Source of the DNA: Clostridiales bacterium
Lineage (GTDB): Bacteria > Bacillota > Clostridia > Monoglobales > WRBX01
Length of the DNA stretch: 64,000 nt
Reading direction: 5' to 3'
Assembly: GCA_031261985.1 (NCBI GenBank)
Contig: JAISIR010000011.1
Span: forward strand, 19,472-83,471
How positions within the stretch are numbered: the first letter of the stretch is position 1; the number at the start of each line of letters is the position of its first letter. Positions 6,055 through 27,245 of the stretch are shown here, one piece after another. Both the position numbers and the translations under genes were made by a program. The notes below the pieces were generated by a model. That model had not been told where the DNA came from and made no database searches. It saw nothing but the letters and a program-made list of their open reading frames with translations.

Positions 6055-6083
6055 TTGCAATTTATAAAAAGTTTATCTATAAT
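6055..6083 (+). promoter_or_regulatory. Sigma-A type promoter for giant gene 2
   Basis: TTGCAA (6055-6060), a 17-nt spacer, then TATAAT (6078-6083), about 130 nt upstream of the ATG at 6214. Confidence 0.6.
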
Positions 6084-6213
6084 AGATTATGAGGCAGTAA
6101 AAATTCTTTTATTGTTTAAAAAGCCTTTTATTGATAAAGAATCTTTAGGTTGTTCGGCATAAAAAGCGTGTTAGTAATTGATTAATCAGTTCTAACAGAA
6201 GGGGCAATGTTTT

Positions 6214-10275: not shown

Positions 10276-10411
10276 TCTAGTTAATATTATTAATGTTTAA
10301 TAAACTAAGATGAAGTTGTTTAAAAGTAGTTTTAGATTAGCGCTAATTTGTTTATTTTCCCTGATATATAATATATCTTGGATACCCAAGAATGAAAGGA
10401 TGTAATCTGTT

Positions 10412-13400
10412 ATGAGTACGTTACAAAGTGTTAAAAGAAGACTGACATCTATAGTTACAACAGGTGCAATGATGCTATCTATGTTTGCGCCTTTAGGATA
10501 TGTAAATGCAGAAGGCAATAATACATTGCCTATTGATGCGCCATTGAGCGCGCAAGCGGTCTCGCTTACTACTACACCCAATGTGGAATTTAAATTAGTT
10601 CCATTAAAAGATGCAGATGGTAATATCGTGGAGACTTTGGACCCGACATTGAATAAGACATATATCGATAAAAACCATGCGCCAAAGAAGTCGGACGGAA
10701 CGCTAGACAACGTGGCGGCAGCGGCGGTAGAAGAGGGCGACGGAGTTGAGGCTAAGGCTGCAACTTATGACAACACAGGTGTGTATGACATTGAGGTATC
10801 GCTTAAAGATATCGATAATGTATTTGCTTTTCAGTTACCATTACAGTTTGACCCTAAAACTGTGCAGGTTGATAGCGTTACGCTAAGCGATAAGTTCGCA
10901 GCAGGCGGTTGGGAGTTATTGCCATACTCTGAGGGCGAATTTGCGCCTTATGTGTTAAGCGGTGCTTCTGATAGTGTAATTGACCTTGGCACAATAGATG
11001 ATGCCGTTCAATCGGACATCAATGCAGACGGTAAAATGGTATTTAGTGTTGTGTGGAGTGGTGCGGATGATGCGAACCTTGACGATGACCCTAAAAATGC
11101 TGATATAGGCAATAATGAGGGCGCAGGCGAGAAGTTCTTTACCGTTAGGATTACATCTAACTTTACCGATTCTATGACAACGGAAGAAAGTTTGATTGAA
11201 GCGGCAGAAGATAAGGCTGATAAAGATGGCACGGATTTTGCAACTGCAAAAGACGCACTAGCGCTACTTGCTAGCACTTATGCAGAGAAACGTAATGATT
11301 ATTATACCGAGTTGGATAAAGGCGTTCTTGCTGATTTTGAAACACTAAAAACAAATTATGGCTTGTTTGTAACTGCAAGTAAGGCTTTAGATGCAGCTCG
11401 AATTGCTAATGGTTACTATCCTACAACTTTTGCAGGGCGTAACATGTATGCTCAAGAGGATGCGAACTCTATATTTGCAAAGGCGGATATAATTTCTGAC
11501 GATGGCACTATGGTTTCGTACACTAATCTATCTTATAATTTTGAAGTAGAGGGTAGTGACACTGTTAAGCCAATGCAAGTAGTTGAGTATAACGCAGGGA
11601 TATCTATTGATACTTTAGGTGAGGCAACTCTTGCTGATACTACAGAATATGGTATTGACCAAGAGGCTTACGATTTATTAATTACAAAAGGAAAGCAATT
11701 AAATAAAACATACATAACTACTAAAGTTGGCGATATTAATGATGACGGTGAGACTATAGATGAGGCTGGTTATGAACAAATTTTAGATTGGTATGTTGCG
11801 GTTCCAGAGAAAGTTGCCGACGATGATGATTTAGACTATAATTATAGGAGTTTGTTGTTTTATGACGACGGGATGTATTTATCCGAAGATTCGGATTTTG
11901 CAAAGGAATATGGTACGATAGCGTTGGAAACGTCAGGTACAAGTGCAATTTGGGAGTACACTCCTGGCACACACCAAGGGCAGATAGTGCTTGTAGCGGT
12001 TGCTAAAGGTAAACATAATACCCCAAAATCTAACTATGAAGTGCAACAAGCCATTACGCTTTATGGTGTAGGGTATTCGGTTTCTACATCTGTTGGTGAG
12101 CTAGCATTGCCAACGAGTGAAATAGGCATAAGAGATGTAGACGGTGTTCGCACAGGTATAATTGCCACAAGTATGTTGCAAGAGTCTGACGATTTAATAA
12201 TTTCTACAATTGGCGGAGCTGTGGCAGGCGACCAAACAGTTGAAACGGTTGACAAAACTAAATATGTTTCGGCTGGTGATTCTATCCCTGGTGCAACGGA
12301 CGACCAAGCGGGTGTTGCAGGTGATGATAACGAAGCGTTTGTAAGTGATGAGGGGCCTAAAACTACATATACATTAATCAAAAAAGGCGACGGTGGCACT
12401 TGGACGACAGAGACGGATGCAAAAACAATAGTGACAGACTCTGAAGGTGATTTTGGCAGGGGGATATCGCTAAAAAGTTTATTGACAACTAATAAAGGTG
12501 CGTTCTTGGCGTCAGACGGGACAACTCCTTCGACTGGTGTATATAAGCTAATTGTAACATCGGACGCGGGAAATGCAAATGGTTACTTAACCGAGCTTAG
12601 TGGCGTTAGAACAGGCATGGGCGTAGATGATGATACATGGACATACACCGTTTACTTTGAGTTAAAAGAAGAAGGTTCTATCCGTGGGCGCGTTATGTTA
12701 GAAGGTTATGATGGCAGAGGGCTCGAGCTTGGTTCACTTGAAGCAGAAGGCGCATTCCGCAAAGATGTGAATGTCAAGTTAGTAAGGGTTCCAGAGTCTC
12801 AAAGAGAGATGTTTGAATCGGGCGAAGTTTCGGACGACCCTTATATTGGTTATGATTACACAAAAGATAACGAAGAAATTGATATAATATCTAGTGTTAA
12901 AACAGATTCGACAGGATACTTTACAGTGTTCACACGCAATAATAATGATAAAGTAGATTATACTGATGGGAATCATTATTACTTATTGTTCGAGGCACGC
13001 AATTTAAATTATGTTTATAGCGGAGCGACGGGTAGCGAGCATGATGGAAATCGCATGTATTTGAGGAAGAAAATTAAACTTACTAATACAATAGGTGATT
13101 CGGACAATGATACGCAAATAGATAAAAACGTATTTATTGGTAATCTTGGGCAAACAGATGTAAACGATATTATTCTTTATGCTGGCGCGTTTACAGACGG
13201 TGAGGCAATTACAACCGAGAGCGATTATGCTAGAATAAGAGCTGTTGTAGGTAAGGCGGTTGAGCTTGAGGGTGACCAAGGCGCGAAGACATTGCCAGCA
13301 GCATACACTTATGATGATAAAGATATCAACTTAGATGCAAAAGTTGCTCCTGATGATTTAGCTAAGGTTAAAAAGAATGTTAACGAGAGGTCTTATGTGG

Positions 13401-13483
13401 CTGGCACCGCTGATGAGTATAACTTTAGTATGCTAGTTGAAGAACTTGCTCCAGTTGTTCCTGAAGATCCTGTAATAGACTAA
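10412..13483 (+). CDS. Giant secreted surface protein (1023 aa) with a signal peptide, an N-proximal cohesin-like module, and a C-terminal beta-sandwich plus dockerin-like tail
   Basis: ATG with an AAAGGA SD. Signal peptide MSTLQSVKRRLTSIVTTGAMMLSMFAPLGYVNA|E. No terminator is visible between gene 2 and this gene, so they may be co-transcribed. Confidence 0.92.
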   Translation: MSTLQSVKRRLTSIVTTGAMMLSMFAPLGYVNAEGNNTLPIDAPLSAQAVSLTTTPNVEFKLVPLKDADGNIVETLDPTLNKTYIDKNHAPKKSDGTLDNVAAAAVEEGDGVEAKAATYDNTGVYDIEVSLKDIDNVFAFQLPLQFDPKTVQVDSVTLSDKFAAGGWELLPYSEGEFAPYVLSGASDSVIDLGTIDDAVQSDINADGKMVFSVVWSGADDANLDDDPKNADIGNNEGAGEKFFTVRITSNFTDSMTTEESLIEAAEDKADKDGTDFATAKDALALLASTYAEKRNDYYTELDKGVLADFETLKTNYGLFVTASKALDAARIANGYYPTTFAGRNMYAQEDANSIFAKADIISDDGTMVSYTNLSYNFEVEGSDTVKPMQVVEYNAGISIDTLGEATLADTTEYGIDQEAYDLLITKGKQLNKTYITTKVGDINDDGETIDEAGYEQILDWYVAVPEKVADDDDLDYNYRSLLFYDDGMYLSEDSDFAKEYGTIALETSGTSAIWEYTPGTHQGQIVLVAVAKGKHNTPKSNYEVQQAITLYGVGYSVSTSVGELALPTSEIGIRDVDGVRTGIIATSMLQESDDLIISTIGGAVAGDQTVETVDKTKYVSAGDSIPGATDDQAGVAGDDNEAFVSDEGPKTTYTLIKKGDGGTWTTETDAKTIVTDSEGDFGRGISLKSLLTTNKGAFLASDGTTPSTGVYKLIVTSDAGNANGYLTELSGVRTGMGVDDDTWTYTVYFELKEEGSIRGRVMLEGYDGRGLELGSLEAEGAFRKDVNVKLVRVPESQREMFESGEVSDDPYIGYDYTKDNEEIDIISSVKTDSTGYFTVFTRNNNDKVDYTDGNHYYLLFEARNLNYVYSGATGSEHDGNRMYLRKKIKLTNTIGDSDNDTQIDKNVFIGNLGQTDVNDIILYAGAFTDGEAITTESDYARIRAVVGKAVELEGDQGAKTLPAAYTYDDKDINLDAKVAPDDLAKVKKNVNERSYVAGTADEYNFSMLVEELAPVVPEDPVID
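10760..11170 (+). other. Cohesin-like module in giant protein 3
   Basis: GVYDIEVSLKDIDNVFAFQLPLQFDPKTVQVDSVTLSDKF ... EKFFTVRITSNF. This is the best match of the four to the classical cohesin pattern. Confidence 0.55.
13176..13387 (+). other. Dockerin-like tail of giant protein 3
   Basis: LYAGAFTDGEAITTESDYARIRAVVG ... DINLDAKVAPDDLAKVKKNVNE. Confidence 0.4.
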
Positions 13484-13503
13484 ATAATTTTAAGTGATAA
13501 TAC

Positions 13504-13537
13504 AAAAAGCGAGGTGCGCGAAACGCCTCGTTTTTTT
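13504..13537 (+). terminator. Rho-independent terminator after giant gene 3
   Basis: The stem cgaggtg/cgcctcg is extended by A-run/T-run pairing and followed by seven T residues (13531-13537). Confidence 0.8.
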
Positions 13538-13820
13538 GTACATTTTTTTAGTGTGAAAGGCGAGTTTTCCTCTATATTATGTAATGACGAGAAATATCAC
13601 AGACAAAATATTATGCAATGTTACAGAATCTTTACATTTTATGTATTTTTATGTTGCAATTTGCAATTTACTATAGACGAATGTGATAAGCATTTAGTAT
13701 AATAAGAATGTGGCGGTGTATCTATTTTTAAATGCTGCCCGAATATAGGAAATGCAAAAAAAGTGAGTTGTAAACAGGGAAAAAAGATAATTAGTTAATG
13801 ATTAATAAGAGGTGTTTGGT

Positions 13821-16800
13821 ATGAATCCATTAAAAAATGTTTTAGCTGTTAGGGCGATATCTTTTGTACTAACATTAGGGGTAGTAATAAGCAGTTTTAC
13901 GCCTGTTACCCTTGTTAGTGCTGCGCAAGATTCATCTGCTAACCCAGAGGCTGCACCAGTTGTGGCGGCTGAAACTGGGGCGGCGGCAGCTGTTGACCCT
14001 GTAATCGCTGAGTATGAATCTTATGCTACTTATGACCCAGATTTAAACGCAGCAGAGAAGAATCAAATTTTAGTGGATGCGTATGCCGTTGATGGTAAGA
14101 CGCTTAACATGGCAGACGGGACTACTTATGCAGATAAAACTCCGTTGGCGGGCATGCAAAACATAGGTGTAGGCAGTATTGTTCGTGTAACGGTTGCGTT
14201 AAAAGATGTAGAGCGTTTAGGCGGGGCGAATTTGCCGCTATCGTATAATAACTCGGTGGCTACAGTTGTAGAAAAAGATACTTGGTTAGAGGCGCCTAAT
14301 AATATTTCTATGGAAAAAAATGGTGGCGCTTCGTTACTTAATAAATATATTTTTAAGGGTACGCTTTTAGGTGCAAGTGATGATAAAAGCTATGGATATG
14401 ATTTGCCGACAGGCGAGCCGGCACGTCCGTTTAATGAGTCTAACCTTCCAGAGATTACTAATAATGACGCAGATTTAGCTAGCTCTAATTGGGGTAAGGT
14501 ATCGCTAAGTGTAGAGGGGCGCAACGGCGCGACTACTTATTTTGGCGATGGTCCCTTAGATGGCGATGTAGTTGGTACGCAAAGTGTGTACTCGGTTTAT
14601 TTTAAGATAATTAGTGAGGGCGAGCCTAGCTTTAAACTTTTACAGCGGAGTGATTCGGTTACTCCCGACCAATTAACATGGCTTAGAACCTCTAATATAG
14701 ATGGTACAGGGAACAGAGTATTATCGGAGCGTGTGCCTGTGTATATCTCGCACGAGACAGCGACATTAAAGGTTAATAACAGCACGGTTTCGTATAATCC
14801 AGAGGAGTATAAAGTAGTTTCTAAAACAGATGCAGAAGATGCAAAGGAGACAAATGAGAACGTAATAGTGGGCGATAAATATGGACTGATTCCGCGTGCC
14901 GATTTAGAAGGGTTAGACGGGCTTAGTGTATATAGAATCAATCGCGCAAAATGGTTTTGCCCTGATTGGGATGGCGACCCTCAACCATCTAACTTTTTAA
15001 GTAGTGCAAGTTTTGGTGGGGTGTTGCTTCCTAGATTAAAGGCTAGTTATAAACCAACAGTTATGGATTTGCCGACGGTTATAAGCCGAGATAATGGCGA
15101 AACACACGATTTATATATAAGTGAGTTGCCCGAGACCGAGGAAAGTCCTGGTGTATACTCTGCTGATGTAGAGCCGATATTATATACCCCCAACGGAACT
15201 AGGCTTACGCTAGCTGATATTGCTGGTGAAACGTTTGGGCGCAACAGTAATGGTAGTTGGTATATACAAAATATCCCGGATAGCATATTCGCGCAGGACG
15301 AGCTACAACAGCTTAGTGTTGCGTTTAAAACCCCAGATGATGTGCTTAATACATACTCTGAGACAGATAAAGTTAAGGCAGAGGAGTTTTTTGCAGATGG
15401 CACTATGAGCGCGTATGTATCGCAAGATGAACCTTTTGGGACTAAAGTTGTTAATGTAGATGGTGATTCACTTGTTAGTGCTAAAGATAAGATTGCGTAT
15501 TTGAATATTCAAGCAGGGGCGTGGTTAGCTAACCGTGTAAAGATGTTATCATTTGATATAAATTATGATAGTGCGATAAGACATAATTATATGCTTGCCG
15601 AGAAATTAGGCGATGCGATAGAAGCTAGAGCTGATTATGAATTAGGAAGCAATTCTCTCAAATTTTCTGTCTATGGTATTAACATAGACGAAGTAAAGAC
15701 TAAGTATGATGTGATATCGATACCTTTTAATATTGATAAGACAAATGCAGACCCGATATTTACACTTTCGGGCGGTGAATTTTGCTCGAGCCCTACAATT
15801 GAGGATGTACTTATGGCGGGCGATATTACTTTTGGTGATGTAGATTTTGTCATTAAAAATGGTGAGGCTAAGGGTAGCGATGAGATATTTGTAATAGAGG
15901 AGCCTGCATCTAGAGAAGTGATAATCGGCGATGTTCCTGCAGGGAGTAAGGCGACTATTACTTTAAAAGAGACGGAAAGCGTTGCGGAAAAAGAGGTTGA
16001 AGTGTACTTTGTAGGCACGCAAGATGAGGCATTGACGCCTTCGACTGATGAAAAAATTTATGTGTATCAGCCAGGTGGATTAATTTATGTATATAAACTT
16101 CCTGATGGCTATGATTTTGTTAAAGTAGAGGTTGTAACACTTGAAACCGATGGCGATGGTAAGATAGAGCAGCCAGAGAAAGAGATTAGTGACCCGACGG
16201 TAATAGAGAATAAAAAAGAGGCGGTTATCACTTTAACAGAGGTGAATAGCATCCCCGATATAGTTGGGTTGACAAGCGGTGTTGACGCTGATGAACTACT
16301 TGAGATGTTGCCTAAAGAAGTAGGGGCGAAGATAGAGATAGCGACTGACGACGAAAAGCTTATGCGTGATGTTAAAATTAAGGTGGCGTCAGTTATAAAA
16401 AGTGGGTTGGGTAAAGAATCGGGCTGGTATGGAACAGTTGGGACTTTACCGATAGGTGCGTATGATTATGTTGGTGTGTTGGCACTTGATAGTCAAGTAG
16501 GGAACCCTAATAATCTAGTGGCAAATGTAAGGGTTAAGGTAGAAAAGACTAATCCTGACGATTTAACCGTGATACAAGATGAGAATGGTGGCGAGGCGGT
16601 AATTGGCGGCACCAGCGATGATGAGCCTACTGATTTAGAAGTGATAGTTACAGATGGGACGGACGAGCCTAAGATAAAGGTGCATGTTGTTCCGATTGGT
16701 AGGGGCGATAATGGCGAGAGGTTTAGTGTTGAGAAGCAAGGCGATAAAGTTGTTAGGATTCCTGTTGATATAGATAAAGATGGTAACTCTGATTTTTCAC

Positions 16801-19391
16801 TTTTCGATTCAAACGGTGACGGAAAAGTGGATGACGTTATCGCGCCTTATGGTGAAAAGATATCTGAAGTTTTATTCTTTGATAGTAATGATGATGCAAA
16901 GAGCGACCAGATATTAGTAGATATTGATGGTGATGCTATTTATGATTATATCTTTATAGATGAAAATGCAGATTTAACGCCAGAAATCATCATTAAAGAT
17001 GATGGTGATGACACGACGGCCTTAATAGGTAAGGATGTCGATGCTGACGGAGTAATAGATGAGACTGATAGCATGCTTATAGAGGGCGCAGGCGGTGATG
17101 GCTTAAATGCGGATATCCCTAAAGAAATTTGGGTAGTCAAATATGGTGATGAGGACCCTGTTATAGATATCCCTGATGGATTTGTTGTTATTGATGTTGG
17201 TGTGATTGTAGAAGACCCAGAGAATCCTGGTGAGGAGATTGTAATTAAGCCAGACCCTCCAGCTGGTGAAGAGCCAGGCGATAATGTTGGTTTGGGGCAG
17301 ATGATTATAGATACTGTCTACCCAATTGCAGACATAAGTGGTATTTATAAGGGGACTACTCTAATTGACCTTCCTTTGCCTAATAGTGTTATGGTTAAAG
17401 TTGCTATTAAAAAGCGCGATTCTCTAATATATAGAAATTATAACATCGACATACTAGAGAATGGCTGGAGTGGAGAGCATGAGAGCGAGTATCCTTTGCC
17501 GCTGGGGACGTATACCTTTAAAGGTGCTTTAAAACTACAGGATAAATATTATAACCCAGATAATGTGTTAGCAAGTGTCAATGTAAATGTAGACTTGGTA
17601 AAAGATGAAGACCATACCGTTATACAAGACGTAGGCTCGAGTGCTATAGTATTAGACAATATTGTAGCGGACTTGAATGTTGAGCTAACGTTGACGGGTA
17701 TTAAAAACATGCAGAGCTACACGCGAAAAGCGACCATTCATTTTGTAGATGATGCGAATGACCTTGAAGCTATGCAGACGGTCGACACAGATGGCGATGG
17801 AATTGATGATATCGAGATATGGGAGCTTGTGCCAGAGAATAATGTGTATACTTACGACCCTACAGATTATCCGCCAGGGGTTGCCGAAACTTTAATTAGC
17901 GCGCGTATGTGGAAGACTAAAAAAGACAGTGTAGGCGAGGATTATGTTACACCACCAATTGAGATAGAAGTAGGGCGAGGCGCGATTTTTGTCAGCAAGA
18001 TTCCGGCTATTAACATCAGCGTAGTGGAGGGGACGAAGGTAAGGGATGTTAATAGAGCTCTTCCTAGTTCGATTGCTGCGACGGTTTCGATTTTAAAGAA
18101 TAATGTTAAGACGGAAGCAGAGCGAGCATTTAATGCTAATGCGTGGGTATGGCAAAATAATGCGTTAAACTTAAATGACACTACAGAGCTAGAGCCAGGG
18201 CAATATATAATAAATGGTGCTTTAGATTTGACTGATACGCTGGTAACTAATCCGCAGAATTTAAAGGTTATTGCAAACATCAATGTATCTGAAAAAGCCG
18301 AGCAGCCAGGTGAAATACCGACTGATGATATAAGTAAATTACGTCAGGGTAGGGTATATGTAACACTAGCTGCTAAGACCCATGATACGATTACTCTAAA
18401 CCCAGCGGAGGGCGGAACTGAAGGAGCAGGCGAGTTTGTATATGGTATTTCGACCCAAGAAGGCGTTCTTCCCGCAACATGGCAGAGCGGGACAGGGTTT
18501 ACAGGCTTGCAAGCTAGCACCACTTATTACCTTTATGCAAAGCGTTTAGGGAACGAAACATACAAGGAATCTTCACCTTCTAGCCAATTGGCGGTTACAA
18601 CTAATGTTCAGCCTGGTGGCGGCGGTGGCGGTGGTGGCGGCGGTGCTAGCCCTAGCCCAGATGTTTCGCCTAAGCCTACACCTACTTCATCTAGTAGTGG
18701 AGGCGGCGAACCTAGCCCAATTCCTAGCGTGAAGCCAATTGAAAACCCAGACCCTGATGATAAGTTGCCTTATTTAACTTGGTATGAACATAATAGTTAT
18801 GTATCTGGGCGTGATGATGGTTCGTTTGACCCACAAGGTGCTATAAAGCGCGAGGAAATGTCGGCTATGTTATTTAGGTTATTAACTGCTCATAGTGTAG
18901 CCAAGTTTGATACTAAGTTAACAAAATTTAAAGATTCTCAAAGGCGTTGGAGTGAGGAATCTATTGCTACAATGCAAACGGCTGGCATAGTTAAAGGGTA
19001 CGAAGACGGAACCTTTATGCCAGATAGGGCTATAACTCGTGCCGAGTTCGCTACTATGTTGACTCGTTTAGGTAATAGTACTCAAGCGGTAAATGGTAAA
19101 ACTATTTTAAGTGATATGGAAGGACATTGGGCTATAGATAGTATGAGCTATGTAATTCAGCGTGGTTGGATGTCTGGCTATGACGATGGTACCTTTAGGC
19201 CGAATAGTCCTGTTAATAGGGCAGAGGTTGTTGTTACTTTGAACAGGTTAATGCACAGGAATATGTCGCCTGAGTTTATTGATGCTTTGCCTGAATTGCC
19301 TACATTTAGTGACGTGCCAAAGGGGCATTGGGCTTACTATTATGTAATGTCAGCTGCGACGACGGTGTGCCTTAAGAATATTAGTTTATAG
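13821..19391 (+). CDS. SLH-anchored giant surface protein (about 1857 aa): signal peptide, cohesin-like module, Ig-like repeats, Asp-rich Ca-loop cluster, poly-Gly/PT linker and three SLH repeats. Candidate anchoring scaffoldin.
   Basis: The ATG at 13821 is preferred over the GTG at 13812 because the SD AAGAGGTG ends 6 nt upstream of it. Signal peptide MNPLKNVLAVRAISFVLTLGVVISSFTPVTLVSA|A. The C-terminus carries SLH signatures. Confidence 0.93.
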   Translation: MNPLKNVLAVRAISFVLTLGVVISSFTPVTLVSAAQDSSANPEAAPVVAAETGAAAAVDPVIAEYESYATYDPDLNAAEKNQILVDAYAVDGKTLNMADGTTYADKTPLAGMQNIGVGSIVRVTVALKDVERLGGANLPLSYNNSVATVVEKDTWLEAPNNISMEKNGGASLLNKYIFKGTLLGASDDKSYGYDLPTGEPARPFNESNLPEITNNDADLASSNWGKVSLSVEGRNGATTYFGDGPLDGDVVGTQSVYSVYFKIISEGEPSFKLLQRSDSVTPDQLTWLRTSNIDGTGNRVLSERVPVYISHETATLKVNNSTVSYNPEEYKVVSKTDAEDAKETNENVIVGDKYGLIPRADLEGLDGLSVYRINRAKWFCPDWDGDPQPSNFLSSASFGGVLLPRLKASYKPTVMDLPTVISRDNGETHDLYISELPETEESPGVYSADVEPILYTPNGTRLTLADIAGETFGRNSNGSWYIQNIPDSIFAQDELQQLSVAFKTPDDVLNTYSETDKVKAEEFFADGTMSAYVSQDEPFGTKVVNVDGDSLVSAKDKIAYLNIQAGAWLANRVKMLSFDINYDSAIRHNYMLAEKLGDAIEARADYELGSNSLKFSVYGINIDEVKTKYDVISIPFNIDKTNADPIFTLSGGEFCSSPTIEDVLMAGDITFGDVDFVIKNGEAKGSDEIFVIEEPASREVIIGDVPAGSKATITLKETESVAEKEVEVYFVGTQDEALTPSTDEKIYVYQPGGLIYVYKLPDGYDFVKVEVVTLETDGDGKIEQPEKEISDPTVIENKKEAVITLTEVNSIPDIVGLTSGVDADELLEMLPKEVGAKIEIATDDEKLMRDVKIKVASVIKSGLGKESGWYGTVGTLPIGAYDYVGVLALDSQVGNPNNLVANVRVKVEKTNPDDLTVIQDENGGEAVIGGTSDDEPTDLEVIVTDGTDEPKIKVHVVPIGRGDNGERFSVEKQGDKVVRIPVDIDKDGNSDFSLFDSNGDGKVDDVIAPYGEKISEVLFFDSNDDAKSDQILVDIDGDAIYDYIFIDENADLTPEIIIKDDGDDTTALIGKDVDADGVIDETDSMLIEGAGGDGLNADIPKEIWVVKYGDEDPVIDIPDGFVVIDVGVIVEDPENPGEEIVIKPDPPAGEEPGDNVGLGQMIIDTVYPIADISGIYKGTTLIDLPLPNSVMVKVAIKKRDSLIYRNYNIDILENGWSGEHESEYPLPLGTYTFKGALKLQDKYYNPDNVLASVNVNVDLVKDEDHTVIQDVGSSAIVLDNIVADLNVELTLTGIKNMQSYTRKATIHFVDDANDLEAMQTVDTDGDGIDDIEIWELVPENNVYTYDPTDYPPGVAETLISARMWKTKKDSVGEDYVTPPIEIEVGRGAIFVSKIPAINISVVEGTKVRDVNRALPSSIAATVSILKNNVKTEAERAFNANAWVWQNNALNLNDTTELEPGQYIINGALDLTDTLVTNPQNLKVIANINVSEKAEQPGEIPTDDISKLRQGRVYVTLAAKTHDTITLNPAEGGTEGAGEFVYGISTQEGVLPATWQSGTGFTGLQASTTYYLYAKRLGNETYKESSPSSQLAVTTNVQPGGGGGGGGGGASPSPDVSPKPTPTSSSSGGGEPSPIPSVKPIENPDPDDKLPYLTWYEHNSYVSGRDDGSFDPQGAIKREEMSAMLFRLLTAHSVAKFDTKLTKFKDSQRRWSEESIATMQTAGIVKGYEDGTFMPDRAITRAEFATMLTRLGNSTQAVNGKTILSDMEGHWAIDSMSYVIQRGWMSGYDDGTFRPNSPVNRAEVVVTLNRLMHRNMSPEFIDALPELPTFSDVPKGHWAYYYVMSAATTVCLKNISL
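14140..14640 (+). other. Cohesin-like module in the SLH protein
   Basis: GVGSIVRVTVALKDVERLGGANLPLSYNNSVATVVEKD ... SVYSVYFKIISEGEPSF. Confidence 0.45.
16768..17070 (+). other. Cluster of Asp-rich calcium-binding-type loops
   Basis: DIDKDGNSDFSLFDSNGDGKVDDV ... FFDSNDDAKSDQILVDIDGDAIYDY ... KDVDADGVIDETD. These are repeated DxDxDG / DxNxDG loops. Confidence 0.5.
18766..19370 (+). other. Three S-layer homology (SLH) repeats
   Basis: ...GRDDGSFDPQGAIKREEMSAMLFRLL; FKDSQRRWSEESIATMQTAGIVKGYEDGTFMPDRAITRAEFATMLTRL; LSDMEGHWAIDSMSYVIQRGWMSGYDDGTFRPNSPVNRAEVVVTLNRL; trailing FSDVPKGHWAYYYV. They are preceded by G11 and a P/T/S linker (18606-18760). Confidence 0.85.
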
Positions 19392-20037: not shown

Positions 20038-21069
20038 ATGCCTAAATTTTCTGACTTAGCAAAGAAAGCTGTAGCAACAATCGCTGCGATATTTACAATA
20101 GGAAGTTCTGCCGCCTGCGTACCAGATGCGCCAGAGCAAGGAGGCGCGTCTCCGTATTCGCAAAGCCAGGAGACTTCTATGACTATTGAGCCAACTGTAG
20201 AAAACGACCAGGTTGTTACTAATGTTGAACAAGAGGTTGTATCGTCAACGGCCATGACAACCGTGCCGTCTGGTGCGCTTGTTCCTAATCCAGAGCAAGA
20301 GTTTGTATTGGAAACCGCGACGACCCCAGCGCCAAGCGAAACGATTGTGCCAACTGAAACGACTGTAGCAACTGGGACACAAACTGAACATTCGGGAGTT
20401 AAAATCCCTAACCTTGTCGATTCTGAAATGGGATATAATATTGCTTATTTTGCTGAGAGGGAAGAATTTCTAATTCAAAGAATAGAAACAGTGAAATCTG
20501 ATGGGGATTCTAATCTGTATATATATAACAATTTTCTTTCAGTAGACGCAGTTAAAGATTGCCTTGAAAACGAACAAATTGACGGTGTAAAAGTAACTGC
20601 TAATTCTGACAGAGACGATATTCTATTATATAAAGAGATAATGAGCATAGATGATAAAACTTTAGCCGAAGCGGGCTTGAAAACCCTTGGTGAGTATATG
20701 GTTTATAATCGCTCTAAAACTTATATATATTCGCCTGAAAATGAGCAATTTACTTGCACGGTTCAAACATCTATAGGCGTAGAACTGGATCAAAAATTAT
20801 CTAAAACAGATGTTGCCGATATTTTAAATAATAAAACCTATATGGGGGAAGCCTTGGATAGCCCTGCGAATTCTGTTGGCGGAAATAAGCTTATTATTGC
20901 CTTAGTGCAACAGATTCCTGAAAATTTTCTGATAGAGGCTGGTCTTAAAAAAGAAAGCTTGGCAAAGCAAATGGTCGCGGCGAAAGCTAATGCGTCTGGT
21001 GGTGAGCCGCCTATCAATGCTGCGCAACCCACCGCGGTCGCACCTGTGGCTACGCAACCTCAATTCTAG
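20038..21069 (+). CDS. Secreted protein or possible lipoprotein of unknown function (343 aa)
   Basis: N-terminus MPKFSDLAKKAVATIAAIFTIGSSAAC has a Cys after the hydrophobic core, but the lipobox is non-canonical (Ser at -3). A T/P/E/V-rich linker follows, then a globular C-terminal domain I do not recognise. Confidence 0.8.
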   Translation: MPKFSDLAKKAVATIAAIFTIGSSAACVPDAPEQGGASPYSQSQETSMTIEPTVENDQVVTNVEQEVVSSTAMTTVPSGALVPNPEQEFVLETATTPAPSETIVPTETTVATGTQTEHSGVKIPNLVDSEMGYNIAYFAEREEFLIQRIETVKSDGDSNLYIYNNFLSVDAVKDCLENEQIDGVKVTANSDRDDILLYKEIMSIDDKTLAEAGLKTLGEYMVYNRSKTYIYSPENEQFTCTVQTSIGVELDQKLSKTDVADILNNKTYMGEALDSPANSVGGNKLIIALVQQIPENFLIEAGLKKESLAKQMVAAKANASGGEPPINAAQPTAVAPVATQPQF

Positions 21070-21080: not shown

Positions 21081-21120
21081 TAAACACGCTGCGCGCGAGT
21101 TAATCGCGCGCGCGTGTTTA
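21081..21120. terminator. Strong GC hairpin between convergent genes
   Basis: taaacacgc(t)gcgcgcga-GTTAA-tcgcgcgcgcgtgttta gives a 17-bp stem with one bulge. Confidence 0.7.
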
Positions 21121-21199: not shown

Positions 21200-22288
21200 C
21201 TAATAATCTGCATCTTGTATTTTTTGATACCTATACATAAATCCGTCGCTGAACACAAGGTAGATAATGGTACCGTCGTCGCTAAAATAACTATTTATAG
21301 CTTTATCGCCGCTAATGGCAATCTTAAGCAACTCGTCAAAACTGGTTACCTTAACCTGGATAACCTTACGCGCATCTGGCATTGATTGCAATTTAACAAT
21401 GTTTCTGCCATAGTGACGCTCTATCATTTTATCTTCGTTATATTTATTTTCTTTTTTAGTACTTTTGCCGCCCTTGCGTTTTAGGCTTTTAACGCCAACG
21501 ATGATAACACAAGTTGCACTTGCAATTATTATGCACATAAGGAAGGTTGCGCCTAAAGGTAGGCTGCGAGAGGTTTTTGCACCTTCATCTAATGCAATGG
21601 TAGGTGCGCCAGAATATGTTACGCTATACACCTCGTTGGTTAAAGGTATGGTAACGGTGCGTGAAAGAGTTTTGTTTAAGTTATTTTTAGCGTTAACAAA
21701 AGTATATTCAAAGGTTAAGACTAATTGGGCTGAGAAGCTAGGGCTGCGGCTAAAAATAAGGTTACGATTTTTAATCATTTTACTTTCTTCTTGTAAAAAC
21801 GAGTTATATGTTTTAATAAATTGGTATGGGTCGATGCTATAAGAACCGCCAGGCTCGGCGCCATGGTTAGGTTTAAAGCTAAAATCTTTACCGTTGGCGG
21901 TTTGAGTTACGGTTTTAAGCGGATAAACGACATTTAATACTTGAGTAGGGGTTGTAGAGTTGCCGCTATCGTAATTTATAATTAAATTTTGGTATGCGTT
22001 GTAAGAATAAGTAACATCCATAGCTTTATCGAGATTTAAATTTAAGCTGTCATTAACTTGTATATAATCGGTATAGCTAAGTAAGTAAGAGCCTTTGATA
22101 TTATCTTGAATTTTATTTTGTGTGAAGGATGTGTTGGGCTTATAAACTACATTATGACCAACTGTTTGTGTTGCGGTACCTTTAACTGATTGCGTGTTAA
22201 ATAAGAACATGTAGCTAAACGCCAATGTTAATGTGGTAATTATTAATAAAAACGATATAGCAATGGAAAGAATCGTTTTTTTCCTCAT
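21200..22288 (-). CDS. Bitopic membrane protein, last gene of the fibre operon (362 aa). N-terminal anchor, about 230-aa extracytoplasmic domain, second TM, about 95-aa cytoplasmic tail. Possibly DUF5305-like.
   Basis: TM1 is ILSIAISFLLIITTLTLAF and TM2 is LPLGATFLMCIIIASATCVIIVGV, followed by the basic stretch KSLKRKGGKSTKK. The gene is on the same strand as, and 57 nt downstream of, the peptidase gene. The DUF5305 assignment is from memory of operon context and is untested. Confidence 0.85.
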   Translation of the reverse strand: MRKKTILSIAISFLLIITTLTLAFSYMFLFNTQSVKGTATQTVGHNVVYKPNTSFTQNKIQDNIKGSYLLSYTDYIQVNDSLNLNLDKAMDVTYSYNAYQNLIINYDSGNSTTPTQVLNVVYPLKTVTQTANGKDFSFKPNHGAEPGGSYSIDPYQFIKTYNSFLQEESKMIKNRNLIFSRSPSFSAQLVLTFEYTFVNAKNNLNKTLSRTVTIPLTNEVYSVTYSGAPTIALDEGAKTSRSLPLGATFLMCIIIASATCVIIVGVKSLKRKGGKSTKKENKYNEDKMIERHYGRNIVKLQSMPDARKVIQVKVTSFDELLKIAISGDKAINSYFSDDGTIIYLVFSDGFMYRYQKIQDADY

Positions 22289-22345: not shown

Positions 22346-23542
22346 TTAAAACTGTTGTAGCATAATTGTGGGGTAGCCTATCAATGGTATATGGGCAGAA
22401 GCTATGCCCAAAATTTTGTCTTTTGTGACTGGCTCGGTATCGGCTTTTGGATTATTATCGCCTTTGGTAATATATAGTGTTTCGCCATTTTCGTTTCCAG
22501 TTATTTCTATTACTCGGTGTATAACTTCTGTTTTACCCTTAGAGTAATCTATTACATCGCCTACTTGGACGTAGCCTTCAATTTTTTTAGGGTTAATTTT
22601 TTTGATAAACACAAGTGCTCCACGTGATATTGCGGGTTTCATACTATTACTTGCCACCGCGGCAGGGAAGTATGGTAGTGACTTTGTTGCGAACAAAACC
22701 ACAAGTAAAATTATGCTTAACGATATTACGCTGCTTCGTATTGGGTGTTTTACCTCCCAACGCATGCCATGACGGCGTGCGCGAGATTTGCGGCGCATTA
22801 TCCTAGGAGTAAATAAAAACTTATTATATAAAAAGTAGATGACAAATAGTGAAAGGTAAATTACAATCGCCCAAAGTATTCTTTTTACATTTGGTAAAAT
22901 AGGCGATAAAATTGAGGTTAAGGTAAATATAATGTTTAAAATTATACACCCAAGAGGCACGCTATAGCTTGCAATTGGTATTAGTATAATGTTTAGTATA
23001 AGGTTAGGCATTACCGAGGTTATAATGTAATCTACTCTCTGTTGCGTAGCGTATCCAATAAACGACGAAAGGGTTTCGGCGCGGATAAAGGTGAAAACAA
23101 CGACGATTACTGAATAGAGAACCGCACGTTGGTTAAAAGTATATTGCTTTGATGTTTTAACAAGGTATACTCTAAAATATTCTTGTGCTATTACAAAAGG
23201 TACATACACCCAAATATTGTTAAGCCATACATTAAAGCTTGGCGTAGTTGCATTTGCACCTGCTCCAAAAATGAGTATGCAAATAAATAGAGCAAAGTAG
23301 TAAATAATTGCGCTACATATAGCCAAAATAATGCTGTCGTAGCCTTTTAGCTCGGTTGTATCGTGGTGCAATTTAAGCGATAAAAATACAACCAAACCTG
23401 TTATATATACAAGCGGGCGGATTATTAATAAATATATATTATTTGCATCAGGTGGCAAAAAAATGGAAAACAGATGAAATATTGCCATGAATGCTAATAT
23501 TAAATATTTGGTTCTTAATCTATCCATGCTTATAACGTCCAA
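22346..23542 (-). CDS. Fusion protein (398 aa): about 8-TM N-terminal domain plus a SipW/Sec11-type (S26B) signal peptidase I
   Basis: The C-terminal 125 aa read AVASNSMKPAISRGALVFIKK ... GDVIDY ... VIHRVIEI ... YITKGDNNPKADTEPV. The catalytic Ser codon is at 22643-22645, His at 22517-22519, and the GDNN box is typical of SipW/archaeal/ER-type peptidases. The N-terminal 270 aa contain 8 hydrophobic helices, then the basic loop RRKSRARRHGMRWEVKH, then the peptidase's own anchor helix. Confidence 0.85.
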   Translation of the reverse strand: MDVISMDRLRTKYLILAFMAIFHLFSIFLPPDANNIYLLIIRPLVYITGLVVFLSLKLHHDTTELKGYDSIILAICSAIIYYFALFICILIFGAGANATTPSFNVWLNNIWVYVPFVIAQEYFRVYLVKTSKQYTFNQRAVLYSVIVVVFTFIRAETLSSFIGYATQQRVDYIITSVMPNLILNIILIPIASYSVPLGCIILNIIFTLTSILSPILPNVKRILWAIVIYLSLFVIYFLYNKFLFTPRIMRRKSRARRHGMRWEVKHPIRSSVISLSIILLVVLFATKSLPYFPAAVASNSMKPAISRGALVFIKKINPKKIEGYVQVGDVIDYSKGKTEVIHRVIEITGNENGETLYITKGDNNPKADTEPVTKDKILGIASAHIPLIGYPTIMLQQF

Positions 23543-24291
23543 TTAAAATTCGGAGCGATATCCGAAGTGAAAATTATTTTAAATACAATATTATTCTCGT
23601 GATTTTGGGCATTCTCGGTATAATAATAAGGCAAGTAAAACTCTAACGCGTCGGTAACACTTGGGTCGATTTTACCTTTAAAGTTAAGTGTAAGCCTGCC
23701 GTTAGAATCGGCATAAATATAATCGGCAGCTGTGATATTGTACTTAGAGTTAAATAGCGAGTTAGGGCTGCCATTGGGTGCGGAAAACTGTGTATTTATA
23801 ACGCCGTCGCCAATTGTTTTGGTAAACTTGTCGGCGGGGGTAAGTGCCCATACATCTTTAGTTGGGTTGGTAATAACAAAGTTTAGAGATAAATCGCCAG
23901 CTTTACTTATAGCTGATTTTTTATCTAGCGTTAGATAAAAGGTATTACCTTGCCAATATTGGTTTAATACTTTAAGCCCGTCTAGTTCGGGCTCGATAGG
24001 CACAAAGACTATTCCTTTGCTAGTGGTTGCCGTTATACTTTGGCTAGAAGACTCTGCTATGGGTTCATCGATAGATTCGTCTAATGCAATAAGTGAATCG
24101 CCCTGTTCTTCCTCGGTTGGTTCTTCTTCTACAAAGTCGACGCCTTCGGCTAGCATAACAATAGGTGTAGATGCGGATTCTGGAACAGAAGCCGCACCTT
24201 CAAAACCCATTGCATATTCTTGAGAGGCATATACCACGCCGACACATAATATGAATATGGCGTACGACCATAACATTACTTGCTTAAGCAT
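23530..24291 (-). CDS. Secreted TasA-like accessory protein (253 aa); TapA-like role is hypothetical
   Basis: Signal peptide MLKQVMLWSYAIFILCVGVVYA|S, then an acidic linker (EEEPTEEEQGD), then a beta-rich domain with AGDLSLNFVITNPTKDVW, similar to the PGD...F.v.N.G box of the two upstream subunits. Its stop overlaps the peptidase start by 13 nt, indicating translational coupling. Confidence 0.85.
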   Translation of the reverse strand: MLKQVMLWSYAIFILCVGVVYASQEYAMGFEGAASVPESASTPIVMLAEGVDFVEEEPTEEEQGDSLIALDESIDEPIAESSSQSITATTSKGIVFVPIEPELDGLKVLNQYWQGNTFYLTLDKKSAISKAGDLSLNFVITNPTKDVWALTPADKFTKTIGDGVINTQFSAPNGSPNSLFNSKYNITAADYIYADSNGRLTLNFKGKIDPSVTDALEFYLPYYYTENAQNHENNIVFKIIFTSDIAPNFNWTL

Positions 24292-24331: not shown

Positions 24332-24429
24332 GTCATTCCGCGCTTGACGCGGAATCTATACGCAATGTCGGAATTGATTGATATCATTCTTAATTAGCGT
24401 GTAGATTGCGGGTCGGAGCCCGCAATGAC
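24332..24429. repeat. Inverted pair of family C hairpin repeats inside the operon
   Basis: gtcattccgcgcttgacgcggaatctatacgc (24332-24363) and gcgtgtagattgcgggtcggagcccgcaatgac (24397-24429, inverted orientation). They lie in the 167-nt gap between the subunit genes and the accessory genes. Confidence 0.8.
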
Positions 24430-24458: not shown

Positions 24459-24968
24459 TTACACGCCTTGTGCAGATGTTGCCTCGTAGTCTATTTGAAT
24501 TGAGAATGTGTTAGCACCTGTTTTTACAGCTAACTCTTCTGCTGGCCATGTTAGAACAACGGTTTTACCGTCTATGCTAGCGCCTTTTGCAATTGCTTGA
24601 CCTTCTAGCTCGGTGTACGTGCCTGTTACTTCGATATCGTCGTTATTTGTTACTGTAATGTCGGTAATAGTAGCAGATGCGTTACCTACGTTGTCTACAT
24701 TAAAAGTTACGTAAGCTGTGTCGCCTGGCTCTTCCATTGTTGCTGTAAGTGTTAAAGTGTTGTTTTCGTTAGATATAACAGCTGAGCTAATGATAGCTTC
24801 GTCGCTGCTAACGGCGTCAGTAATGTCTAGGTTAATGTTCTCAGAAACTGTCGTTGTACCGGTAATGGTTAAATAGCCAGATGTTACGGCGTAAACTATC
24901 CCTGCAAGTGCTAGTAAAGCAATGATCGCAAGAATAATAGCGGTGGTTTTTCTTTTTGAGTTTGTCAT
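24459..24968 (-). CDS. TasA/camelysin-like fibre subunit candidate 2 (169 aa)
   Basis: N-terminus MTNSKRKTTAIILAIIALLALAGIVYAVTSGYLTITGTTTV. The internal box EPGDTAYVTFNVDNVGNASATI matches, from memory, B. subtilis TasA LKPGDKLTKDFQFENNGSLAIKEV and B. cereus CalY LKPGDSVKKEFLLQNSGSLTIKDV. SGYLTI can be compared with TasA ASGTLDL. Confidence 0.85.
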   Translation of the reverse strand: MTNSKRKTTAIILAIIALLALAGIVYAVTSGYLTITGTTTVSENINLDITDAVSSDEAIISSAVISNENNTLTLTATMEEPGDTAYVTFNVDNVGNASATITDITVTNNDDIEVTGTYTELEGQAIAKGASIDGKTVVLTWPAEELAVKTGANTFSIQIDYEATSAQGV

Positions 24969-25041
24969 TTAAAAACTCTCCTTTTTAAAAAAATATTTAT
25001 AATATAAAATTATACGAAGTAATGATAATGCGGATTTACCT

Positions 25042-25551
25042 TTAATCTGCCTGTGTATAAGGTATGGTAACGCTAAAGGTATAATCGCCGCCAGGGATTT
25101 CTGTGTCGTTAATCCAAGTTATATCGATGGCTTCGTTATCGCGAGTTTCTCCTGGTGCAATTGTAATCGGCAATTGATATGCGTTATCGTTAAAACTTGT
25201 TTTAATGTTAACGGTGTTAGGTGGGAAGTCGCTAGTTATGGTTCCTGTAGTAGAAATAACTGCCGAGACGGAACCAACATTTTCTATTGTAAAAGGAATG
25301 TGAAAGGTACGCGCGGCAGAGAAATCGATATCGAAGGTAATGGTATCGCCATTTCCGCTAATTTCGTAAGGAACTCTATTACCCCAAGTGTTATACTCTG
25401 CAGGGATGCCGAGGTCTAAATCTAATGATGAGGCGACGCTGGCGGTACCACCTAATTGTAGATTGCCTGAAAGGGCAGCATAAGCCACGCCGGTGATGGC
25501 GAATATTACTAAAAATACAAGAATAACTGTAGCATCTATTCGTCTTTTCAA
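25042..25551 (-). CDS. TasA/camelysin-like fibre subunit candidate 1 (169 aa), paralog of 24459..24968
   Basis: TTG start with a GAGGTG SD. N-terminus MKRRIDATVILVFLVIFAITGVAYAALSGNLQLGGTASV. Internal box FHIPFTIENVGSVSAVIS. It has the same length and the same motif order as the paralog. Confidence 0.85.
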   Translation of the reverse strand: MKRRIDATVILVFLVIFAITGVAYAALSGNLQLGGTASVASSLDLDLGIPAEYNTWGNRVPYEISGNGDTITFDIDFSAARTFHIPFTIENVGSVSAVISTTGTITSDFPPNTVNIKTSFNDNAYQLPITIAPGETRDNEAIDITWINDTEIPGGDYTFSVTIPYTQAD

Positions 25552-25642: not shown

Positions 25643-25670
25643 ATTATAACCTACCACTTATTTTTGTCAA
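25643..25670 (-). promoter_or_regulatory. Consensus sigma-A promoter of the fibre operon
   Basis: On the minus strand: TTGACA (25670-25665), a 16-nt spacer, then TATAAT (25648-25643), about 90 nt upstream of the TTG start at 25551. Confidence 0.7.
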
Positions 25671-25808: not shown

Positions 25809-25841
25809 GTTGATGCTAAGATATACTAGGAGGTTGTGTTA

Positions 25842-27245
25842 ATGGTCATTATTAAAGAAGATGCGCCAAAACCGTCTAAAATTTCGCTAAAGTTTAGGCA
25901 CTTTTTTACACACATTAAACCCGAATCGGTGTTTTTACTTTTAGCTATACTTGTTATTATACCAATTTTTATTATACCAATTGCTCAGCCGTCAAATGGT
26001 GCGCTTTTTGCCTCGTTTAAAAGTATGGGCATGTATGCTACCGAGAATCCGCTTAAATATGGATGGCTTGGGCGCGCTGCCGTTTTACCTATACCGTACA
26101 CTGTTTTAGGGTATATAACGTTTTTTATACACAAAGTTATCCCTGCTGGGAGTGTTTTAGATTCGCGTGTATTAGGTGCAATTTATTGCATATTATTGCT
26201 GATTTGCGTTTTTAATACTTGCAAGGGCTTTAATACAATAAAGCACAGGTGGACCAATTACTTATTTGCCTTGCTTTGCGTATTAATATTATGCGATTAT
26301 TCTAACTTAGCCTTTTTTAACACATTATTTAGCTTGCCAATTTTATTTGTATCGTTAATGGCAATTATCGCTATATTTATATCTGTAATAAAGGGCGGAA
26401 GCATACGTTATTGGCAGATGGCATTATTGCTGATTATTGGTGTATCCTTAGCGTTTTTAGGTGATAAATTAAGTGCGTGGCTAGCGGTTGTGATTGGCGT
26501 TTTAGCGTATGCGTTTTTAGCTAGGCATACTCGAACTCCTGATAAAAGCTTTATTTTAGGCTTCTTTATAATACTTATTATAGCTAGTGGTGGGTACAAC
26601 GCGTTTTTTGTCCAAGGGGCGAGTTATAAGCAAGATTTATACAACAGTGTATTTTTTGGTATAACTGATGTTACATCGGTTGAGAGTATTGCGCTGCCGG
26701 ATAGTTTTAATGGGTATGCCGAGCATTTTTACTCGTCTGATAATCCAATTGACAACGGGTTCTACAAAGTTGCGAACTATAAAAGTATTATTACTTATTA
26801 TTTGCGTAACCCAAGTGATTTATTCAGTGAAATTAAGTATTCGGTTCAAAATGCGTTCGGCATGCGAGGGCTGGATATAAGTGGAGAAGCACCTGGAAAT
26901 TTTAGGTTATATGCGCTGCTAAAATCTATTTTTGCGCCTGCCACACGCTCAATGATGGTATTGTTTTTATTAATATATTTTGGAGTTTCGATATATGTAT
27001 CGTCCGACCGAACACGGAAGGACTCGACTAGGCAATTTGCAGGGTTGCTTGCGTGTTTAAGCGTGATAGAGTTTTTAGCTTTAGTTGCGCCGATAGTTTT
27101 AACGGGAAGATTTTTGGTTAATTATAATACATCGTTGGCAGGGATTATATTTGATATCTTAGTGTTATTTGGAATTGTCGGTGGAATTAGGATTTTGCTA
27201 GAGAATAATGACAGGAACAAAGAAAAGTTTGGGATAGAAGAGTAG
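25842..27245 (+). CDS. Polytopic integral membrane protein of unknown function (about 467 aa, at least 10 TM)
   Basis: The ATG at 25842 lies 9 nt after GGAGG (25828-25832); the track's GTG at 25836 is too close to the SD. The protein is hydrophobic throughout and I recognise no catalytic motif. Confidence 0.85.
   Translation: MVIIKEDAPKPSKISLKFRHFFTHIKPESVFLLLAILVIIPIFIIPIAQPSNGALFASFKSMGMYATENPLKYGWLGRAAVLPIPYTVLGYITFFIHKVIPAGSVLDSRVLGAIYCILLLICVFNTCKGFNTIKHRWTNYLFALLCVLILCDYSNLAFFNTLFSLPILFVSLMAIIAIFISVIKGGSIRYWQMALLLIIGVSLAFLGDKLSAWLAVVIGVLAYAFLARHTRTPDKSFILGFFIILIIASGGYNAFFVQGASYKQDLYNSVFFGITDVTSVESIALPDSFNGYAEHFYSSDNPIDNGFYKVANYKSIITYYLRNPSDLFSEIKYSVQNAFGMRGLDISGEAPGNFRLYALLKSIFAPATRSMMVLFLLIYFGVSIYVSSDRTRKDSTRQFAGLLACLSVIEFLALVAPIVLTGRFLVNYNTSLAGIIFDILVLFGIVGGIRILLENNDRNKEKFGIEE

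Follow-up and report, generated by a model that had tools for sequence, protein, structure and literature searches.

We analysed a 64,000-nucleotide stretch of a Clostridiales bacterium assembly (GCA_031261985.1, contig JAISIR010000011.1, positions 19,472 to 83,471), hereafter called the window, in which a compact cluster of five genes, A-B-C-D-E, occupies the minus strand from approximately 25670 to 21085. The first two genes encode secretory proteins of 169 amino acids (aa), which we describe here as candidate subunits of an extracellular fibre. The original prediction, made from the letters of the stretch, had called these two 169-aa open reading frames (ORFs), and their coordinates and N-terminal strings were exactly right.

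Gene A (25042..25551) uses a TTG start codon preceded by a GAGGTG ribosome-binding site, and approximately 92 nt upstream of it lies a promoter-like element, TTGACA-16-TATAAT (25643..25670), which agreed with the consensus at 12/12 positions and was the best hit in a 5-kb scan. The predicted signal peptide of A comprises residues 1-25, leaving a mature protein of 144 residues with an isoelectric point (pI) of 4.05, and a predicted donor strand, ALSGNLQLGGTASV (residues 26-39; 25435..25476), which aligns to AbpX Q1-T14, stands directly after the predicted AYA/ cut (a slash marks the cut throughout). Gene B (24459..24968) starts with ATG and has a predicted signal peptide of residues 1-27; its predicted donor strand, VTSGYLTITGTTTV (residues 28-41; 24846..24887), follows the predicted VYA/ cut. 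Gene C (23530..24291) encodes a 253-aa putative accessory subunit with a VVYA/ site and a donor-strand-like segment, SQEYAMGFEGAASV (residues 23-36; 24184..24225). Gene D (22346..23542), which overlaps C by 13 nt, codes for a 398-aa polytopic signal peptidase I (SPase I), and gene E (21200..22288) for a 362-aa DUF5305 protein with two transmembrane (TM) helices. A terminator-like hairpin 3' of E (21085..21097) is common to the convergent gene. Promoter and terminator calls were made by consensus matching only.

The 167-nt spacer between B and C contains two GC-rich hairpins without a U tract (24335..24426, minus strand; fold z-score -2.9). The terminator scan made no call there, and the idea that they are copies of a repeated element was rejected, both sequences being unique in the 64-kb window. 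Partial attenuation or mRNA stabilisation are possible roles, by which expression of the subunits would be separated from that of the machinery or the mRNA ratio set.

A and B are paralogues over their full length (28% identity across 149 aa, E=6e-9, BLASTP), and the earlier description of the two proteins as diverged beyond their N-termini was not supported. Their N-terminal 22-residue strings are identical at 10/22 positions, and in each the Sec signal closes with Y-A, ahead of SGxLx[LI]xGT. Both mature proteins are acidic, with a pI of approximately 4.05 and an Asp+Glu content of 12.5% in A and approximately 14.7% in B (the values for B were computed on a form cut after residue 26, the predicted cut after Y-A being at residue 27). 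A HMMER scan of 1.84 billion representatives with a profile of A and B retrieved 700 proteins (50%-identity clusters) at E<=1e-3, of which 43 reached E<=1e-10; the majority are 160-200 aa long. B is nearer the family consensus than A (154 vs 121 bits with the family hidden Markov model, HMM). A homologue search with B alone recovered only B, and one with a 122-sequence profile recovered nine proteins. This 122-member family set was also used for the PDB search, for the Pfam and NCBIfam scans of the members and for the AlphaFold2 (AF2) alignment described below. PHROGs returned nothing meaningful for A and B.

The N-termini of the family follow a common pattern: a K/R-rich n-region, a hydrophobic core, and then G/S-[VI]-[VGA]-Y-A / A-x-[ST]-G-x-L-x-[IF]-x-G-[TS]-[AV]. 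Residue frequencies were counted in 149 representatives, these being the sequences with an anchorable N-terminal cleavage site among 155 (the 150 best of the HMMER scan and 5 from the 122-sequence profile search); residues are numbered from the predicted cut, +1 being the first residue after Y-A, -1 the Ala and -2 the Tyr. Their overall sequence identity with A is only approximately 25%. Upstream of the cut, V, G or A is found at -3, Y at -2 in 90% and A at -1 in 96%. Downstream, A is present at +1 in 71%, S or T at +3, G at +4 in 56% and L at +6 in 92%, followed by I/F at +8 (85%), G at +10 (95%) and T/S at +11 (84%). The motif Y-A/SGxLx[LI]xGT thus occurs far above chance, and its conservation in homologues, which had been proposed from A and B, holds across these representatives. 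In the window, the family HMM matched A, B and the N-terminus of C only, and the same three proteins were the only ones among 40 ORFs of at least 120 aa with a hydrophobic core ending in [VIAG][VIAGT]YA.

Several family members (P0065, P0101, P0113, P0148 and others) are 300-1100 aa long; their signal, donor strand and first domain are those of the family, and long extensions come after these. Such proteins may be tip or adhesin versions of the subunit. No C-terminal LPXTG was found in 19 family representatives of at least 250 aa.

When the PDB was searched with the 122-member profile, the best matches were to AbpX of Pyrodictium abyssi (9sj2_C, E=7.5e-10; 9rhp_A, 1.6e-8), with TasA far behind (8aur, 0.011; 5of1, 0.027). 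A direct comparison of the family with AbpX by hhalign gave a probability of 95% and E=1.8e-8 over the core. By these profile comparisons, A and B are bacterial relatives of AbpX and belong to the TasA superfamily. The cryo-electron microscopy (cryoEM) structure of the AbpX fibre revealed donor-strand complementation, in which residues W2-I12 form the donor strand, W2, L6, L8, A10 and I12 are buried, and Ca2+ is bound at the interface of strand and groove (bioRxiv 10.64898/2026.01.04.697558). AbpX homologues have a pI of approximately 4.0 and approximately 15% Asp+Glu (bioRxiv 10.64898/2026.01.04.697558).

The AbpX precursor, taken from the supplement of the same preprint, reads ...AIGLTYA/QWSETLSLSATISTGSLDVDIK (bioRxiv 10.64898/2026.01.04.697558). 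With the family profile, hmmalign placed IGLTYA/QWSETLSLSATI of AbpX, TGVAYA/ALSGNLQLGGTA of A and AGIVYA/VTSGYLTITGTT of B in one register, from which it follows that the Y-A pair is common to all three proteins. Extended to a second conserved element, the rows are IGLTYA/QWSETLSLSATIST-GS-LDVDI for AbpX, TGVAYA/ALSGNLQLGGTASV-AS-SLDLDL for A and AGIVYA/VTSGYLTITGTTTV-SE-NINLDI for B. S-G-x-L-x-[LI]-x-G-T falls on AbpX S3..T11, within the strand W2-I12 seen by cryoEM, and the buried AbpX residues W2, L6, L8, A10 and I12 correspond to L2, L6, L8, G10 and A12 of A. The proposal that a cut after Y-A would expose a donor strand at the new N-terminus agrees with this register and with the AbpX precursor (...GLTYA/QWSETL).

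An AF2 monomer of A, built from the 122-sequence alignment, had a mean predicted local distance difference test score (pLDDT) of 88.5 and consisted of a helix at residues 7-27, an unstructured segment at 28-44 and then a beta-sandwich; from two sequences alone the pLDDT was 61. Monomeric AbpX has the same disordered N-terminus ahead of its beta-sandwich, and recombinant AbpX that begins right after Y-A forms donor-strand fibres (bioRxiv 10.64898/2026.01.04.697558). The AF2 helix of A is continuous and includes Y-A, as would be expected if the hydrophobic segment were an uncleaved signal anchor, the term used in the title of the original prediction, and A and B were membrane-tethered proteins with a juxtamembrane motif. 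We consider this very unlikely: Ala at -1 (96%) and V/G/A at -3 are classic cleavage determinants, the operon itself encodes a signal peptidase, and the AbpX form that assembles into fibres is the one that starts after Y-A.

Taken together with the partner genes described below, these observations make it likely that the five-gene operon builds an extracellular, non-covalent fibre of AbpX/TasA type. A, B and C would be made with Sec-type signals, in which a hydrophobic core follows a basic n-region and the c-region reads G-[VI]-[VA]-Y-A, and D, with its Ser-His-Asp set, would cut after Y-A, probably together with E. This cut would leave an amphipathic strand at the N-terminus, in which Leu6, Ile/Phe/Leu8, Gly10 and Thr11 are nearly invariant, and the strand would enter the open groove of a neighbour's beta-sandwich by donor-strand complementation. 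The expected product is a linear polymer of acidic subunits (pI approximately 4), to which C, where a long acidic linker carries a donor-like strand, would probably contribute as a cap, nucleator or adaptor.

D matched TIGR02228, the model of endoplasmic reticulum (ER)/archaeal signal peptidases, at E=1.2e-27 (96.7 bits, cutoff 51.85). Its last approximately 110 residues align with human SEC11A (E=1.7e-10), placing SNS300MKP, IH342RV and GD362NN on SGSMEP, VHRV and GDNN of SEC11A and predicting Ser300, His342 and Asp362 as the catalytic residues; these motifs are invariant across six homologues. The hydropathy profile consists of approximately nine hydrophobic helices followed by an extracytoplasmic catalytic domain. 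By sequence, D is a polytopic SPase I of the ER/archaeal type. E matched PF17231 (DUF5305) at 1.6e-10 (41.2 bits, cutoff 29), and its TM segments (residues 6-24 and 248-266) flank a domain of approximately 220 residues, an architecture that is also that of TafG and of the AbpX accessory protein (PMC11821415; bioRxiv 10.64898/2026.01.04.697558). By analogy, E is a putative TafG-like accessory subunit of the signal peptidase. From the linkage of the genes we infer that processing of A and B depends on D and E.

The original prediction had assigned TasA-superfamily proteins to an operon with a SipW-like peptidase of the ER/archaeal type, which was borne out by the AbpX homology and the TIGR02228 match; its identification of the peptidase as SipW itself was not. 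Taken literally, that prediction would make A and B matrix proteins of the TasA/CalY family (Peptidase_M73) cut by a true SipW orthologue. There is some likeness: hhalign aligned the family with TasA (probability 75%, E=2.4e-5), placing YA/A on WA/A and matching PGD...N.G, 3/122 family members matched PF12389 weakly (E<=0.01, best approximately 3e-4) and one matched the TasA model, and D matched the SipW equivalog NF046067 at 5e-17. However, the score of D against that model was 62.1 bits, below the cutoff of 190, and D contains an additional domain of approximately eight TM helices. A and B had no match to PF12389 or NF046066 at E<=1, AbpX matches the family approximately seven orders of magnitude better than TasA does, and a TapA homologue was not found. 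TIGR04088, the model of curated SipW-cognate signals, also gave no match at E<=10 to the N-terminus of either A or B, whereas TasA scores 38 bits with it (cutoff 19); as had been proposed, the signal differs from that class. A TasA/SipW identity is therefore quite improbable.

The DUF5305 protein also raises the possibility of a Tafi-type pilus (DUF1102 subunits, TafA/TafE) transferred from archaea. The machinery (a TafD-like peptidase and TafG, which is a DUF5305 protein) and the gene content (two to three small subunits and a larger one, with predicted donor-strand assembly) are Tafi-like. The subunits point elsewhere: DUF1102 had no match among the 122 family members, the signals are of Sec and not Tat (twin-arginine translocation) type, KRRIDAT of A being off the Tat consensus when read by eye, and among solved structures AbpX is the best relative. 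In TafD an N-terminal catalytic domain is combined with four TM helices (PMC11821415), whereas D has approximately nine and a C-terminal catalytic domain. Among the alternatives considered, a transferred Tafi pilus appears the most remote.

Genes of the subunit family adjoin a D-like polytopic peptidase gene (385-411 aa) in six independent loci: two metagenome contigs (L001/L002), Clostridiales oral taxon 876 (L003/L004), a Clostridium sp. (L005), a Peptococcaceae metagenome-assembled genome (MAG; L007), a Bacillota MAG (L011) and an Oscillospiraceae MAG (L014). In a phmmer search the peptidases of five of these matched D, and that of L005 (385 aa) had only a faint Peptidase_S26 match. A DUF5305 gene is present in all four loci that reach past the peptidase gene (L001/L002, L003/L004, L005 and L011). 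A degenerate DNA pattern for YAAxxGxLTFxGT yielded 16 loci in genome contigs, of which only L007, L011 and L014 encode family members by HMM (L013 was marginal); the others, from Burkholderiales, Streptomyces and further organisms, look like chance matches.

The related loci contain one to four family paralogues each, and A and B have the same best match, in L014; there are consequently no stable A-type and B-type orthologue pairs, and the idea of such pairs was rejected. It is plausible that A and B are repeating and minor subunits, with a division into major and minor components, and C, which the original prediction did not take in, is a clearer accessory subunit than either of them.

Other features of these loci were variable. 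L003 (KE993496.1, 300-13500) contains four paralogues with AbpX-type starts (GYA/AWTD...), two DUF5305 genes and two-component regulators, and is closer than the window operon to the published bacterial abpX loci. In L001 (14400-16500), genes for a PrsW-type protease and a sigma factor of the ECF (extracytoplasmic function) type follow the DUF5305 gene, and in L005 (8578-9654) a T2SSE-family ATPase gene stands beside the peptidase gene; accessory genes thus vary among loci. The N-terminal domain of D, of approximately eight TM helices (22750-23542, minus strand), has no Pfam match. In six homologues, including those of L001, L003, L005, L011 and L014, it contains an invariant P43 in 'RPL' with R/K before it, an invariant G93, an E-x-x-R motif (E125, R128) and a second invariant Pro, P213.

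Gene C has a different organisation. Its signal and donor-strand-like segment, in which M6, F8, G10, A11, A12 and V14 are kept, are followed by an acidic linker of approximately 65 residues and a C-terminal domain unrelated to A and B. By hhalign, C matched the family over signal and donor strand only (E=1.7e-4, or 9.8e-6 with the L007 homologue added), which makes it a third donor-strand-bearing protein with a different globular domain; that C is a diverged AbpX-like fold was rejected for the same reason. The L007 homologue occupies the same third operon position, has a clean IAYA/AQANNLGVLGTAQV and shares with C a W-x-G-x-TFYL...NPT core. TapA is the donor-strand accessory protein of TasA (PMC9674648), and by analogy with it, or with the predicted tip proteins of abpX loci (bioRxiv 10.64898/2026.01.04.697558), C probably has a TapA-like or tip-like function in capping, nucleating or adapting the fibre, C itself having no detectable homology to TapA.

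A number of observations weigh against an AbpX-type fibre. A and B are covered by no Pfam or NCBIfam model. Foldseek found no significant PDB match for the monomer model of A, only generic beta-sandwiches, and AbpX and TasA were absent among the matches listed. The sequence V/A-x-A conforms to the general -3/-1 rule, and A and B could therefore also be cleaved by a housekeeping SPase I. The operon contains no sortase, LPXTG or SLH (S-layer homology) anchor, the C-terminal LPXTG scan having covered the 19 family representatives. The predicted mature form of A starts with A-L-S-G and that of B with V-T-S-G, without an aromatic residue at +2 or an acidic one at +4, and the positions of the AbpX calcium site are mostly not conserved in the family.

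Part of this evidence would also fit ordinary secreted or wall proteins with immunoglobulin-like domains (CARDB/DUF11-like), processed by housekeeping SPase I and non-polymerising, in which the motif would simply be the first beta-strand. In addition to the generic A-x-A site and the generic Foldseek matches, weak matches to CARDB, DUF11, DUF7507 and choice-of-anchor domains were seen in approximately 10% of the 122 members scanned. In such a protein, however, the motif would not be expected to be unstructured in a confident AF2 monomer, nor to align to an experimentally seen donor strand of AbpX. The linkage to a dedicated peptidase and DUF5305 protein is strict in the six loci, and the near-invariant Tyr at -2 is unexplained by general SPase I specificity. 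On balance, we regard this possibility as unlikely and favour the AbpX-type fibre.

The differences at +2 and +4 concern residues that have been called critical for AbpX, namely the aromatic residue at +2 (Trp clamp) and the acidic residue at +4 (Ca-binding Glu) (bioRxiv 10.64898/2026.01.04.697558). Position +4 is occupied by G in 56-65% of the family and by Asp or Glu in 6-8% (two counts on different sequence sets). Gly at +4 without an aromatic residue at +2 occurs in 82/149 representatives, and the AbpX form with both features in 11/149; proteins of L003 and L005 are of this form (GYA/AWTDKITL...). With regard to the other calcium ligands, most family members have Ser in place of AbpX D48, an acidic residue stands at the E52 position in 18%, and D46 and E142 fall in insert columns of the alignment; D18 is the sole ligand that is often acidic (56%). 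The alignment suggests that the AbpX calcium site is largely absent in this family, which makes calcium-triggered assembly doubtful for A and B. Judged by sequence, the lack of Trp clamp and Ca-binding Glu is a modest variant of the AbpX type. A more specific joint reading, possible rather than probable at present, is that in this large Bacillota clade (YA/A-x-S-G-x-L-x-[FI]-x-G-T), for which Pfam and NCBIfam have no model, small residues and the invariant Gly10 replace the Trp clamp and calcium-binding Glu, that Ca-free fibres are formed by a donor-strand rule of their own, and that Tyr(-2)/Ala(-1) is a code for the polytopic SPase-DUF5305 pair and not for the housekeeping peptidase.

Three other secretion or assembly routes were considered and rejected. 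The Tat consensus is S/T-R-R-x-F-L-K, from which the n-region of A departs despite its RR. A type IV pilin or pseudopilin does not agree with a cut that lies after, not before, the hydrophobic core. Sortase or isopeptide pili were discarded given the absence of a sortase in the operon and of C-terminal LPXTG in the representatives examined.

Adjacent genes were also inspected. Divergent from the operon promoter region, the gene of a 469-aa polytopic protein (25836-27245, plus strand) was found to match the WsfD hexose transferase subfamily (NF051875, glycan biosynthesis) at 1.3e-36, above the cutoff. Ser+Thr content of the subunits is 21-25%, and together with the adjoining WsfD-type gene this makes glycosylation conceivable; in the related loci a gene of this type was not seen. 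The convergent neighbour (20038-21069, plus strand) encodes a 343-aa protein without a family match, whose N-terminus resembles a lipoprotein signal by eye (...GSSAAC). Further along, four very large consecutive ORFs (32-19391, plus strand; 1952, 1353, 1023 and 1859 aa) probably encode cell-surface proteins; three had no Pfam family at E<=1e-5, and the last has SLH domains (2.4e-34).

Our analysis places a previously unannotated operon of a Clostridiales MAG, together with several hundred related clusters that lack a Pfam or NCBIfam model, in the AbpX branch of TasA-like fibres. It also provides a signature by which such subunits and accessory partners can be found, consisting of a hydrophobic core, [VG]-Y-A/, L6, a hydrophobic residue at 8 and G10-T11. 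Many members of the branch lack the residues proposed to underlie the AbpX calcium response, which bears on the generality of the calcium-triggered model and on which family members may serve as self-assembling materials.

Among known systems, the Tafi pili of haloarchaea (TafA/TafE, TafD and TafG, which is DUF5305) and the DUF1102 clusters of Thermococcales and Archaeoglobales (PMC11821415, PMC12337348) have in common with the window operon a dedicated peptidase with a DUF5305 protein, several small subunits and a larger accessory one; donor-strand assembly, predicted for the window operon, would be a further common trait. They differ in DUF1102 subunits, Tat export in haloarchaea and another peptidase topology.

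The TasA/SipW/TapA system (PDB 8AUR, 5OF1) likewise has an ER-type operon peptidase and an aromatic-Ala cut (TWA/AF vs the predicted VYA/A.), and shares with A and B a PGD...F.F.N.G core and a donor strand, predicted in A and B, that starts at the new N-terminus; TapA has in common with TasA only a donor-strand-like N-terminus, and C may be similar in this respect. A and B differ from TasA in having no Peptidase_M73 or TIGR04088 match, an N-terminal region approximately 20 residues longer and an overall length approximately 90 residues shorter. The original prediction took the TasA donor strand to be SGTLDL, approximately 10 residues in, and considered the segment that precedes it to be absent from A and B. 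Neither point was correct. In TasA, residues 28-38 (AFNDIKSKDAT) form the donor strand, directly at the N-terminus made by SipW, and are followed by 39-47, FASGTLDLS (PMC9674648); an N-terminal exposed strand is accordingly a rule of the superfamily and not a peculiarity of A and B. With YA/A on WA/A in the hhalign alignment, the family has approximately 15 extra residues, and the conserved N-x-G lies 65 residues from the cleavage site in A, compared with 46 in TasA and 74 in AbpX. In a manual alignment, TasA ASGTLDLS corresponds to the second element (ASSLDLDL of A and STGSLDVDI of AbpX), not to SGNLQL.

The closest system is that of AbpX. An AbpX-like clade of the TasA superfamily was reported in Thermoproteota, Bacillota and Chloroflexota in a January 2026 preprint, in which abpX loci encode minor subunits of AbpX type and a tip protein, alongside an unusual SPase I that has ten TM helices and an accessory protein of the DUF5305 family (bioRxiv 10.64898/2026.01.04.697558). 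As this clade and its loci had already been described there, A and B do not define the distinct, undescribed subclass that had been suggested. Differences from AbpX are the absence of cysteines in A and B (AbpX has a disulfide), signal peptides of 25-27 residues compared to 54, approximately nine hydrophobic helices in D compared to ten in the AbpX-locus peptidase, and the absence from this operon of the LPXTG or SLH anchor and the kinase and c-di-GMP genes of published bacterial abpX loci. In other respects they are alike. Y-A closes the signal in both, the donor strand (predicted in A and B) begins at once and in the same register (L6, a hydrophobic residue at 8, a small one at 10 and T11), a second 'LD[LV]D[IL]' strand and a PG(D/A)...F.[VL].N.G core are present, and the subunits are acidic (pI approximately 4) and approximately 145-165 residues long. 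In both loci, additional subunits of AbpX type and a further accessory subunit are encoded together with a polytopic SPase I and a DUF5305 protein. The operon described here adds a new member to the AbpX-like/TasA-superfamily fibre systems and does not represent a new kind of system.

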